DNA of 64,000 bases from Alphaproteobacteria bacterium (lineage in GTDB: Bacteria > Pseudomonadota > Alphaproteobacteria > Rickettsiales > JABCZZ01), in contig JAMIFV010000021.1 in assembly GCA_035906055.1 (NCBI GenBank), positions 1,810 through 65,809 on the forward strand, given 5' to 3'. Below, piece by piece: positions 5,743 to 24,424 of the stretch; the first letter of the stretch is position 1, and each line of letters opens with the position of its first letter. A program made the position numbers and the translations under genes. The notes below the pieces were generated by a model that saw only the letters and a list, made by a program, of their open reading frames with translations, searched no databases and had not been told where the DNA came from.

Positions 5743-7272
5743 ATGGAAATTCGCCCTTCGGAAATTTCTGATATTCTCAAGAAAAAGATCGCCGCTTTTG
5801 ATGCAGGCGCTGAACTGTCCGAAACCGGGCAGGTTGTTTCCGTAGGTGACGGTATCGCCACCATCTATGGCCTCGAAAACGTACAGGCCGGTGAAATGGT
5901 GCAGTTCCCCAGCGGCATGAAGGGCATGGCGCTCAATCTTGAAGCCGACAATGTGGGCGTGGTAATCTTCGGTTCCGACCAGGCCGTGAAAGAAGGCGAC
6001 ATCGTAAAACGTACCGGCGACATCGTGGACGTTCCCGTGGGCAAAGGCCTGCTGGGCCGCGTAGTTGACGCACTGGGCAACCCGATCGACGGCAAAGGCC
6101 CCCTGAAGGACGTAAAACGCTCCCGCGTGGAAGTGAAGGCTCCCGGTATCGTATACCGCAAATCCGTACATGAGCCGATGTCCACGGGCATCAAGGCTAT
6201 CGACGCACTCATCCCCATCGGGCGCGGCCAGCGCGAGCTGATCATCGGTGACCGTCAGACCGGCAAGACCGCCATCGCGGTTGACACCATCCTCAACCAG
6301 AAAGCCGCCAACGCAGGCGACGACGAAAGCAAGAAGCTGTACTGCATCTATGTGTGCGTAGGCCAGAAGCGTTCCACCGTTGCGCAGGTAGTGAAAAAGC
6401 TCGAAGAGACCGGCGCGCTGGAATATTCCATCGTGGTAGCCGCCACCGCTTCGGAGCCCGCTCCGCTGCAGTATCTCGCGCCCTACACCGGCGCCGCCAT
6501 GGGCGAATTCTTCCGCGACAACGCCATGCATGCGCTGATCATTTATGATGATCTTTCCAAGCAGGCCGTGGCTTACCGCCAGATGTCCCTGCTCTTGCGC
6601 CGCCCGCCCGGCCGTGAAGCGTATCCCGGTGACGTATTCTACGTTCACTCCCGCCTGCTCGAACGCGCCGCTAAAATGAGCGACGACAAGGGCGCAGGCT
6701 CACTCACCGCCCTGCCCGTCATCGAAACGCAGGCTGGCGACGTATCCGCCTACATCCCGACCAACGTAATCTCCATCACCGACGGCCAGATATTCCTTGA
6801 AACCGAACTGTTCTACAAAGGCGTGCGCCCCGCGGTTAACGTGGGCCTTTCCGTATCCCGCGTAGGTTCTGCCGCGCAGATCAAGGCCATGAAGCAGGTA
6901 GCAGGTTCCATCAAGCTGGAACTCGCGCAGTACCGCGAAATGGAGGCATTCGCCCAGTTCGGTTCCGACCTCGACGCCGCCACGCAGAAGCTGCTGGCAC
7001 GCGGCCAGCGCCTCACTGAACTGCTCAAGCAGCCGCAATACTCTCCGCTCTCCACTTCGGAAGAAGTCCTGGTGATCTATGCGGGCGTAAAAGGCTACCT
7101 CGACGCCATGCCGGTGAAGAACATCGCTGAGTTCGAAAAGGCGCTGCTGCAGCAGGCACGCGCTGAAGGCAAGCTGCTTGCCACCATCGACAAGGAACAG
7201 AAACTCACTGATGCTTCCGAAGCCCAGATGAAAACCATGATCACCGAAATTGTGAAAAGGTTCGCCAGTTAG
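5743..7272 (+). CDS. atpA: F1 ATP synthase alpha subunit
   Basis: GDRQTGKT Walker [14 protein letters not shown]; SD ggag upstream. Confidence 0.99.
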
Positions 7273-7300
7273 GGGCTAGCTACTAGTAGCTAGGGACTGG
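7270..7300 (+). repeat. Left heptamer-period arm (CTAG flavour)
   Basis: CTAG at 7276, 7283, 7290 and CTGG at 7297 (7-nt period); begins at the atpA stop codon TAG. Confidence 0.85.
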
Positions 7301-7305
7301 CTTGT

Positions 7306-7683
7306 ATGGTTAAGCATTATAGAGAACTGAAGATTTGGCAAAGATCCATGGAATTGACGAAATCAATATATGAGGCTACCGCGCAATTTCCTAAAACGGA
7401 AATATATGGCCTTGCCGTTCAGATGCGTCGTTCATCTGTCTCGGTGCCGTCTAATATCGCCGAAGGGCATAATCGAGATTCTTCAAAAGAGTTTCTGCGT
7501 TTTCCTTCCATTGCCCAAGGCTCGCTTGCCGAGTTGGAAACACAGATCACTCTCTCGCAAGCGTTCGCCTACATTCCTGAAAAGCAGGCTTATGATTTAC
7601 TGCAATGTGCCGATGAAGTTGGAAAAATGATTCGCGGCCTGCAATCCAGAATTAACGAAAACCTACTAGCCCCTAGCAACTAG
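7306..7683 (+). CDS. Four-helix-bundle protein (23S rRNA intervening-sequence protein / TIGR02436-like; Avd-like fold)
   Basis: YRELKIWQRSM..IY..T..FPK.E.YGL..QMRRSSVSVPSNIAEG..R.S.KEF....IA.GSL.ELETQ signature; lower GC than flanks. Confidence 0.93.
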   Translation: MVKHYRELKIWQRSMELTKSIYEATAQFPKTEIYGLAVQMRRSSVSVPSNIAEGHNRDSSKEFLRFPSIAQGSLAELETQITLSQAFAYIPEKQAYDLLQCADEVGKMIRGLQSRINENLLAPSN

Positions 7684-7695
7684 CTCCTAGCAACT
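7663..7695 (+). repeat. Right heptamer-period arm (CTAG flavour), inverted relative to 7270-7300
   Basis: CTAG at 7666, 7673, 7680, 7687 and CTAT at 7694; ctagccccta complements taggggctag; contains the four-helix gene stop and abuts the atpG ATG. Confidence 0.85.
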
Positions 7696-8568
7696 ATGCC
7701 AAGTTTAAAAGATTTAAAGAACAGGATTAAGAGCGTCAAATCGACGCAGAAGATCACGAAGGCCATGAAGATGGTGGCCGCCGCGAAGCTGCGCCGCGCC
7801 AAGGACCGTGCAGAATCCGCACGCCCCTATGCGGAAAAGATGGCCGCTATCCTTTCCTCCCTCGCCGCAGGCCAGAGCCAGAACGCCATTCCGCTGCTAA
7901 ACGGCACGGGTAAATCCGACACCGTGCTGCTGGTGGTGATGACCTCCGACCGTGGCCTGTGCGGCGCGTTCAACGGCTCCATCACGCGTGCCACCAAACG
8001 CAAGGTGGCCGAGCTGAGAGCCGCGGGCAAGACCGTGAAGCTCTTGTGCATAGGCAAAAAAGCCTATGACCTGCTCAAGAACGATTTCGGCAGCCTGATC
8101 ATCGGCCGCATGAGCGAGATCGGCAAGAAGCAGGTGCAATACGCGGAAGCCGAACATATCGCACGCGCCGTGCTCAAGCATTTCAACGATGGCGGCATCG
8201 ACATGGTGCATATCGTTTACAACCATTTCAAGTCGGCCATATCGCAGGTGGTTACGTTCCAGCAGGTGATTCCGTTGCTAGAACTAAACAACGAACAACG
8301 AGCAACGAACAACGTTCCCTATGAATTCGAGCCGGATGAAGAATCCATCCTCGCCGACCTGCTGCCGCGTAACGTGGCCGTGCAGATCTATGGCGGGCTT
8401 CTGGAAAATGCCGCATCCGAACAGGGCGCGCGCATGACCGCGATGGACAACGCCACCCGCAACGCAGGCGGCATGATCGGCAAGCTCACCCTCAAATACA
8501 ACCGTACCCGTCAGGCGACGATTACGAAAGAACTCATTGAGATTATCTCGGGAGCGGAAGCATTATAA
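7696..8568 (+). CDS. atpG: F1 ATP synthase gamma subunit
   Basis: [50 protein letters not shown]. Confidence 0.99.
8286..8314 (+). repeat. In-frame heptamer array inside atpG (CAAC flavour)
   Basis: aaacaac-gaacaac-gagcaac-gaacaac-g, encoding NNEQRATNN. Confidence 0.85.
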
Positions 8569-8570
8569 CC

Positions 8571-8634
8571 GTTTTTAGTTGTTGGTTGTTCGTTGTTCGA
8601 ACCGCTGACAACCCACAACAAGCAACGAACAACG
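8571..8634 (+). repeat. Empty heptamer-period hairpin between atpG and atpD (GTTG/CAAC flavour)
   Basis: gttttta-gttgttg-gttgttc-gttgttc, then tgacaac-ccacaac-aagcaac-gaacaac. Confidence 0.88.
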
Positions 8635-8646
8635 ATTTTTGAATAA

Positions 8647-10092
<1,446 letters not shown>

Positions 10093-10654: not shown

Positions 10655-10686
10655 AAAAAAACCCCTGATTTATCAGGGGTTTTTTA
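10655..10686. terminator. Intrinsic terminator (bidirectional) downstream of rpoC
   Basis: aaaaaaacccctgat-tt-atcaggggtttttt hairpin with T-tracts on both strands. Confidence 0.85.
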
Positions 10687-23512: not shown

Positions 23513-23627
23513 TTCGTTGTTCGTTGTTCGTTGTTCATTGTTCGCGCGCACCGGAAGGTGGCATATCCATATAAAGTACTATTTATACAAAATAATTCTA
23601 ACAACGAAGAACTAACAACCAACAACG
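23513..23627 (-). repeat. Heptamer-period inverted repeat at the thiD 3' end (GTTG/CAAC flavour)
   Basis: ttcgttg x3 + ttcattg + ttcg (23513-23544) versus aacaacg-aagaact-aacaacc-aacaacg (23600-23627); the latter includes the last thiD codons and stop. Confidence 0.88.
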
Positions 23628-24424
23628 TGATGATTGAGGGGCCCGTGCCCTTTTCCCAGCCCCGGCGCGGTGCGTATGGCTTCATGCACATATGCCCTTG
23701 CCCGCTCCACCGCCTTTTTCAGTTCCAGCCCCTGCGCCAGGCCGGTCGCGATAGCGGAAGCGAGCGTGCAGCCCGTGCCGTGCGTATGCAAGGTATGGAT
23801 GCGGGGGGAAGAGAACGTGATAAGTGGCACGTGGCACGTGGCAAGAACATCTGTGACGATATCGCCCCGTAAATGCCCCCCCTTGAGCAATACAGACTTA
23901 GCACCTAAAGTGAGCAGAGACTGCGCTAACATTTCCATTTCCTTACCACTTGCCACGTGCCACCTGCCACCACTTAGGAGTTCCGCTTCCGGTATGTTAG
24001 GGGTAAGAACCGCCGCCTTCGGGATCAGCCGCGTTTTCAGGGCTTCCAGAGCCTCCTGCTGAAGCAGTGGTGCGCCGCCCTTGGCTACCATCACGGGGTC
24101 AAGCACAAGCGGAATGGCCGGGTAATCATCCAATACTTTTGCCACCGTGTTGATGACCCCGGCACTATGCAGCATGCCGGTCTTGATGCAGTCCGCGCCG
24201 ATATCCTCCAGCACCAGCCGCATCTGCTGCTCTAAAAAAGCCGTGGGCACCTCATGGATGCCAAAAACCCCGTGGCTGTTCTGGGCGGTGAGTGCCGTTA
24301 CAGCCGTGGCGGCATAGCCCCCAAGCATGGTTATAGTCTTGATATCCCCCTGAATTCCGGCTCCTCCGCCCGAATCCGACCCGGCAACGACCAATACCCT
24401 GCCCGCCAATTTTTTCTCGTTCAT
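23612..24424 (-). CDS. thiD: Hydroxymethylpyrimidine/phosphomethylpyrimidine kinase ThiD
   Basis: AGSDSGGGAGIQGD, DPVMVAKGG, TPNIPEAE, KGGH, HTHGTGCTLASA; ATG 24424 has aaggaa SD. Confidence 0.96.
   Translation of the reverse strand: MNEKKLAGRVLVVAGSDSGGGAGIQGDIKTITMLGGYAATAVTALTAQNSHGVFGIHEVPTAFLEQQMRLVLEDIGADCIKTGMLHSAGVINTVAKVLDDYPAIPLVLDPVMVAKGGAPLLQQEALEALKTRLIPKAAVLTPNIPEAELLSGGRWHVASGKEMEMLAQSLLTLGAKSVLLKGGHLRGDIVTDVLATCHVPLITFSSPRIHTLHTHGTGCTLASAIATGLAQGLELKKAVERARAYVHEAIRTAPGLGKGHGPLNHHVVGC
23817..23970 (-). repeat. In-frame inverted heptamer arms inside thiD (GTGGCA/TGCCAC flavour)
   Basis: gtgataa-gtggcac-gtggcac-gtggcaa (23817-23844) and ttaccac-ttgccac-gtgccac-ctgccac (23943-23970). 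Confidence 0.9.

Follow-up and report, generated by a model that had tools for sequence, protein, structure and literature searches.

When a segment inside a gene repeats one arm of a hairpin downstream of it and is complementary to the other arm, do the three segments form a regulatory device, or are they relatives that lie close together? This question is raised by the junction of atpG and atpD in a 2.36-Mb alphaproteobacterial genome (G000), where an original prediction had described an in-frame arm in atpG (arm A) and a hairpin between atpG and atpD with a left and a right arm (arms L and R). We consider it probable (about 0.7) that this three-arm layout is a by-product of a dispersed family of heptamer modules that has settled both in the atpG-atpD junction and in a permissive loop of the gamma subunit. 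Positions are those of the window, the whole 64,000-nt stretch of DNA that was analysed, and features lie on its plus strand unless stated otherwise.

The atp locus and its three arms

The window contains atpA (5743-7272), atpG (7696-8568) and atpD (8666-10092), which encodes the beta subunit and whose start was picked by comparison with L002. The 290-aa product of atpG is the F1 gamma subunit (PF00231, E 2e-105) and matches the Paracoccus gamma subunit 5dn6_G over the full length (290 versus 290 residues, E 1.3e-94). A cassette lies between atpA and atpG. Its left, GT-type heptamer arm (7270-7298, recognised from inverted repeats and sequence) begins at the atpA stop codon, and its right arm of (CTAGCNN)n (7665-7696, TRF periods 7 and 14) runs into the atpG ATG, so that the two arms are inverted period-7 arrays around a 125-aa ORF (7306-7683). 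This ORF, the cargo of the cassette, covers 105 of the 106 positions of the PF05635 profile (E 7.9e-39), a four-helix-bundle family that carries the Pfam name "23S rRNA intervening sequence protein" and has four copies in the genome including this one.

The cassette also bears on how atpG might be translated. No recognisable Shine-Dalgarno sequence (SD) precedes atpG, and the right cassette arm with its CTAGCNN units fills the 30 nt before the ATG (7660-7700). The stop codon of the PF05635 ORF (TAG, 7681-7683) is 12 nt upstream of atpG, and atpG initiation may rely on coupling to the inserted gene; AAGGAA precedes the atpG ATG in the cassette-free genome G002. The ORF itself falls below the threshold of a self-trained codon-usage gene caller that gives its neighbours scores of 113-243, which hints at foreign or atypical codon usage.

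Arm A (8287-8314) is a solo, in-frame array of the AC type, (AACAACG)4, with the units AACAACG, AACAACG, AGCAACG and AACAACG, and encodes NNEQRATNN. Arm L (8570-8599) is a degenerate GT-type array, (CGTTGTT)4, that starts 2 nt past the atpG stop codon and reads CGTTTTT, AGTTGTT, GGTTGTT and CGTTGTT followed by CG. Its canonical partner, the AC-type arm R (8607-8634), follows after a spacer of 7 nt with the units GACAACC, CACAACA, AGCAACG and AACAACG and is the most degenerate of the three. The L-R stem has four internal mismatches, and arm R is directly followed by a run of five T (8635-8639), which together with L-R resembles a weak terminator. The atpD SD, GAGGG (8655-8659), lies 21 nt past the hairpin.

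All three arms were called as period-7 arrays by TRF, A and L with 4.0-4.3 copies; arm A is near-perfect, agreeing with its consensus at 27 of 28 positions, and arm R is decayed. The 14 nt said to be shared by A and R were found exactly as predicted (AGCAACGAACAACG, at 8301-8314 and 8621-8634), as was the complementarity of A and L, and the repeat search extended both: A and R are 89% identical across 27 nt, and A and L, 255 nt apart, are complementary over 28 nt at 86% and over 22 nt at 91%. When up to two mismatches were allowed, the 14-mer had nine matches in the window compared with 0.50 expected, a count reached in none of 100 shuffles. The match among the three arms is far above chance for random sequence, yet it is not above that of the genome's own repeat family.

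A dispersed family of heptamer arrays

TRF identified period-7 arrays throughout the window and 91 with at least three copies in the 2.36-Mb genome, and an independent detector found 74 period-7 segments, compared with six in shuffled sequence and six to seven for periods 8 and 9. The gene calls used for this genome-wide array census were crude and self-made. The arrays fall into several unit classes, AACAACN (the commonest), ACCGAGT, AACTCYG, AACYKGC, AATCCCC and AATGCCT, and the typical module consists of about four 7-nt units, or approximately 28 nt. The AACAACN class comprises 29 arms, nearly all of three to four units, and A and L, as called by TRF, have the same design of about four tandem units from a class common to many dispersed copies. 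A further pair of this class lies elsewhere in the window (23513-23627, spacer 55 nt; TRF and pair census).

The 26 inverted pairs that we recovered fall into three groups by the gap between their arms: 0-56 nt, which are the gene-less hairpins, 94-158 nt and 365-398 nt. Some of the pairs enclose a PF05635 gene: the four such genes of the genome correspond to four pairs with arms approximately 365-400 nt apart, three from the pair census plus the atpA-atpG pair. The GT-rich arm lies 5' of the AC-rich one in 24 of the 26 pairs, regardless of gene orientation, an order that in an inverted repeat reads identically on both strands. The two exceptions, A-L and C40:27237/27825, are both cross-pairs of separate elements. 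L-R has the GT-rich arm first and A-L does not; by this rule L-R is the pair that qualifies as canonical, leaving A as an additional AC-type arm that lacks an upstream GT-type partner.

Within the AACAACN class, the 812 AC x GT duplexes that can be formed across loci have a mean energy of -29.8 +/- 5.5 kcal/mol. Arm A against the 28 other arms averages -34.2 kcal/mol, with L ranking 14th of the 28; among the partners available to L, A ranks 8th and R 27th of 28. The 10 pairs of true partner arms have a mean of -25.8 kcal/mol, weaker than the cross pairs, and the stems consist of 6-bp blocks interrupted by a mismatch roughly every seven bases, giving the impression that perfect stems are avoided. 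On the sense strand of 19 family pairs, G.U and A.C mismatches occurred 31 and 27 times, respectively, without bias, so the family stems carry no sign of selection for RNA pairing.

Arrays also occur in frame in other proteins of this genome, within or between the parts matched by Pfam: in the editing domain of LeuS, the 3'-5' exonuclease domain of PolA, the oligomerisation domain of CarB, the linker of the E2 acyltransferase, ThiC and ThiD, and with both arms in PriA and in the interdomain linker of CarA. Ddl and RecJ probably hold in-frame arrays as well. Solo AC-type arms in the sense orientation were seen in ThiC, LeuS, PolA and Ddl, and since solo in-frame arms exist elsewhere in the genome, a solo arm in AtpG needs no partner.

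Two of these genes deserve a closer description. In CarA (G000:C40:27099-28287) both arms of an AACTCYG pair lie in frame in the interdomain linker, 109 nt apart, and the carA-carB junction is filled by a PF05635 cassette with arms of the AACTCYG class; this is a second locus where in-frame and junction elements have one class in common. In thiD (23821-23972 of the window, minus strand) an inverted pair of GTGGCAC and GTGCCAC, 94 nt apart, lies inside the Phos_pyr_kin match, which has no excess length (248 residues versus 246 profile positions).

Predicted RNA folding

The energies of both folds were computed, as the original prediction had advised, and the two mutually exclusive pairings that it foresaw were borne out in the calculations, with the long-range pairing winning over the local one. 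The A x L duplex has an energy of about -34 kcal/mol (-34.3; -33.7 in the class comparison) versus -22.0 for L x R, and the local L-R hairpin by itself has a fold energy of -20.4 kcal/mol. A-L thus has an advantage of approximately 12 kcal/mol over L-R, and no helix computed for the region is more stable. In the equilibrium ensemble of free RNA (8270-8720) A-L accounts for 20.4 expected base pairs and L-R for 0.4; when 8280-8320 was forced to be single-stranded, as it would be under a ribosome, L-R formed with 18.4 pairs, and with the entire ORF masked it formed with 7-11 pairs. The two helices thus compete for one common arm, the ensemble flips on masking A, and A-L is predicted to dominate in naked RNA.

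The computed folds do not bear out an intrinsic terminator or occlusion of the ribosome-binding site of atpD. L-R was absent from the terminator-like sites of a consensus terminator scan, falling below its criteria, and the same scan found a canonical terminator at 10656-10685. The atpD SD had unpaired probabilities of 0.42, 0.25 and 0.49 across the three modelled states. An Rfam search of 7200-8750 gave no match, to rRNA or to any other family.

The gamma-subunit loop in relatives

The original prediction had also proposed an alignment of AtpG orthologues around the segment before YEFEP. Across 18 orthologues of the order, hypervariability was confined to the part of the protein from IPL to YE[FY]EP, which has 13-25 residues. 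The loop of the window's AtpG has 14 residues, and arm A adds no length to it in comparison with the 18 orthologues or with the Paracoccus gamma subunit. This loop sits at the surface, between the nucleotide-binding-like domain and the C-terminal helix of gamma. The match to the chloroplast gamma subunit ends at residue 194, and we take the regulatory insert of the chloroplast protein to be located at this same site. None of the three phases of an (AACAACG) array contains a stop codon, and the array encodes only the hydrophilic set N, E, Q, R, T and A; these properties, together with the unchanged length, are why arm A is tolerated in AtpG. A dispersed repeat is thus present in frame in an intact housekeeping gene, atpG being open and full-length relative to 5dn6_G.

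The closest AtpG relatives in the metagenome and genome collections were 75-78% identical. A period-7 scan of the 27 aligned atpG genes of the order found arrays in five, in every case confined to nt 585-660 of atpG. In addition to the array of G000, these have the units CCGAGTA (G003), GTCGCAA (G016) and AAYCACG (G024), or a full, self-contained in-frame hairpin of GTGGCNN and ACAGGCC (G004). Two further loop arrays, with the units GAGAGTC (L053, an "uncultured Rickettsiales" MAG) and AGAGTCC (L132), come from named collections outside the 27 order genomes. An arm complementary to the loop array downstream of atpG was absent from the five longest inverted repeats listed for each of the loci of G003, G004, G016 and G024, and period-7 scans of the L053 and L132 loci likewise gave no complementary arm downstream of atpG. 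G002, the sister of G004 in the AtpG tree, has no array, no cassette and neither arm. The layout is thus not conserved in the six loop-array genomes or in G002, and by these sequence comparisons the three-arm layout appears peculiar to G000, while the loop array recurs in the clade.

The arrays have further features in common. Those of G000, G004 and G024 all stop 5 nt before the codon of a conserved Tyr, the array-to-Tyr sequences being ACG TTCCC TAT, ACG TTCCG TAT and ACG CGCCT TAC, respectively. Their units fit the pattern RRYMACR (AACAACG in G000, GGCCACG and GATCACA in G004, AACCACG and AATCACA in G024), which points to a common constraint or to shared descent followed by concerted change.

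PF05635 cassettes next to atpG and the origin of L-R

PF05635 genes adjoin atpG in G000, G003, G004 (two copies), G007, G016 and G024. The cassette is upstream of atpG in G000 and G007 and on both sides in G004, and in G003, G004, G016 and G024 a PF05635 gene with heptamer or octamer arms lies directly after the atpG stop codon. L-R occupies this downstream junction at an offset from the stop equal to that of the cassettes in the relatives, and it is most likely an empty or collapsed, gene-less copy of this cassette type.

Among the 27 order genomes a loop array was present in five of the six with an atpG-adjacent cassette and in none of the 21 others. A strict rule by which a loop array needs an adjacent PF05635 cassette was weakened by L053 and L132, which have the array and no cassette nearby, and by L054 and L131, which have a cassette and no clear array; the link is also confounded by phylogeny. 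Within one genus, the sisters G004 and G002 are set apart at atpG by three elements simultaneously: in G004 atpG is flanked on both sides by PF05635 cassettes and its 25-aa gamma loop contains a complete heptamer hairpin, and G002 lacks all three and has a 13-aa loop.

Origin of the three-arm layout

In the explanation that we favor, A, L and R would be three members of the (AACAACN)4 class of a genome-wide tandem-heptamer family. L-R would be a hairpin of the gene-less type in the canonical order, GT-rich arm before AC-rich arm, and A a solo AC-type arm that sits in frame within gamma's hypervariable surface loop. The identity of A and R and the complementarity of A and L follow from membership of the arms in one class and are not evidence of a dedicated device. 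The spread of the modules to these positions is something that we infer from their distribution. The sole coincidence left is the 320-nt distance between two members of the commonest class, and with AACAACN making up about a quarter of all arrays, the chance of finding one class twice within that distance is approximately 0.25. On this model A-L pairing would require the last third of atpG to be clear of ribosomes and L-R would form on translated mRNA; the accessibility of the atpD ribosome-binding site is expected to differ little between the folds, and L-R would act at most as a generic intercistronic hairpin. Two points count against a wholly passive role. With its computed advantage over L-R of about 12 kcal/mol, A-L would dominate on any untranslated transcript and may have a physiological consequence there, and the near-perfect state of A (27/28) compared with the decayed R could mean that there is a reason for A to be maintained or renewed.

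The most elaborate alternative is a translation-sensing RNA switch: ribosomes on A would leave L-R with its U-run to attenuate or process the transcript before atpD, and poor translation of atpG would let A capture L and set R free, tuning the beta:gamma ratio. The mutually exclusive pairings with their large energy gap, the change from A-L (20.4 pairs) to L-R (18.4) on masking A, the start of L only 2 nt past the stop codon and the T5 run after R are as such a switch would have them. However, F1 contains beta and gamma in a ratio of 3:1, and the logic of the switch would lower beta when gamma is well translated, though beta is needed in this excess. The L-R stem, with its four internal mismatches, was not called terminator-like, the accessibility of the atpD SD hardly shifts (0.42, 0.25 and 0.49), A x L is average for the AACAACN class, the stems show no real preference for G.U over A.C (31 versus 27), and the layout is absent from the six other loop-array genomes, whose scans showed no complementary arm downstream, and from G002, which has neither arm. 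The suggestion in the original prediction that the structure of the atpD leader depends on ribosome traffic on atpG was therefore not upheld as a designed function, and we regard the switch as unlikely. A simpler role for the long-range helix would be that A-L is itself the true functional pair, a stem around the last 255 nt of atpG that marks untranslated mRNA for double-strand-specific cleavage or delimits a recombination module. That A-L is the most stable helix in the region speaks for this, as does a spacing of 255 nt, of the same order as that of the cargo-bearing pairs (365-398 nt). The pair is AC-first, though, an order seen in no canonical pair (GT-first in 24 of 26), a partner for L is already available at the canonical distance, and partnerless solo arms in frame are common in the genome, as in ThiC, LeuS, PolA and Ddl. 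The 5' and 3' parts of atpG moreover have identical nearest relatives among the eight compared, and import of a 3' atpG module was rejected since the identities of the two parts to these relatives were not discordant. We consider a functional A-L pair very improbable.

Of a different kind is the suggestion that A was written into atpG from R by gene conversion or template switching, leaving the 14-nt identity as a historical record. A and R form a direct repeat at a distance of 320 nt, the third of the four units is the uncommon AGCAACG variant in each, and the in-frame pair in CarA has the class of the adjacent cassette at carA-carB. Against this, longer strings are shared with A by arms on other contigs (17 nt in C57, 16 nt in C79, and 15 nt each in C9, C43 and the window's arm at 23515), so that R with its 14 nt ranks only 6th to 8th among the 28 relatives of A by longest common string; the AGCAACG variant recurs in C9, C55 and C79; and neighbouring arrays beyond partner distance were not enriched for the same class (19% versus a background of 15%). 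The copying event from the intergenic arm into the gene that had been envisaged stands in so far as A belongs to the same dispersed family; a specific copy from R to A was rejected as unproven, and we find a local copy doubtful. The by-product reading carries a caution against inferring riboregulation from complementarity alone, as strong long-range helices in an mRNA, spanning coding sequence, can arise by accident from a repeat family. The three-arm layout is probably unimportant as a regulatory device; any two neighbouring members of the class would give it.

Comparison with known repeat systems

The closest parallel is provided by the Rickettsia palindromic elements (RPEs), of approximately 150 bp and ten families, which a review describes as integrated 44 times in genes of R. 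conorii (PMC10969869). Like the arrays of G000, RPEs are dispersed, capable of forming hairpins, and found both between genes and in frame in unrelated, intact housekeeping genes; they are elements of Rickettsia, and the MAG lineage of G000 is also labelled Rickettsiales. The module of G000 differs in being approximately 28 nt long and built of four 7-nt units, with unit sequences that vary between loci and genomes. The solo arms, an AtpG copy that adds no length and the link to PF05635 set it further apart from RPEs as described (PMC10969869).

ORF-bearing intervening sequences of 23S rRNA have the same plan as the element at 7270-7696, a PF05635 gene between inverted arms, and L-R has this arm design minus the gene. 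The elements of G000 are in an mRNA operon, between and within atp genes, and not in a 23S rRNA helix; 7200-8750 gave no rRNA or Rfam match. Going by the Pfam family name, we presume that the PF05635 cassette is linked to rRNA intervening sequences. The REP/BIME palindromes of enterobacteria resemble L-R as imperfect intercistronic hairpins right after a stop codon inside an operon, and hairpins of that kind could buffer decay of the upstream message; the arms of G000 are tandem heptamers instead, mismatched at roughly one base in seven. Attenuators of the trp-leader type follow the same three-segment logic, in which the middle segment pairs with either neighbour and ribosome position decides, but here a leader peptide is absent, the sensing arm being part of a full-length gene at a distance of 255 nt upstream; the "terminator" is weak and did not register in the terminator scan, and the layout is not conserved.

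The STRR repeats of cyanobacteria, whose units are heptamers, are like the arrays of G000 tandem 7-nt units dispersed through a genome, but lineage and unit sequences differ, and we know of no report of an inverted-pair geometry or of in-frame copies for STRR. These repeats have been used for fingerprinting (PMC5088731). No paper describing the design seen here came up in literature searches that combined heptamer arrays with the intervening-sequence protein or with STRR.

Possible renewal of the arrays

Whatever the fate of the three-arm layout, modules of tandem heptamers associated with the four-helix-bundle family PF05635, itself unexplained, make their way in frame into essential proteins, and a single surface loop of gamma is filled by heptamer arrays of differing sequence in at least seven related genomes. 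It is tempting to speculate that the arrays are written or renewed by an active process tied to the PF05635 cassettes, one that acts repeatedly at the flanks of atpG and in the gamma loop in several families of the order. Pointers in this direction are the common end of the G000, G004 and G024 arrays 5 nt before the Tyr codon and their RRYMACR units, the homogeneity of each array within its own genome, as if an old array had evolved in concert, and the difference between the sisters G002 and G004 by two cassettes and a loop hairpin at once. We hold this only as a tentative possibility; if true, it would amount to a mobile system that rewrites short peptide segments of essential proteins. In L131, whose AtpG is 75% identical, the loop region (approximately 2088-2140) reads GGAAACT, GGAAAAC, AGAAAGC and GGAAAAA and resembles a heptamer array in decay; approximately 400 nt downstream of that atpG there is a PF05635 homologue.
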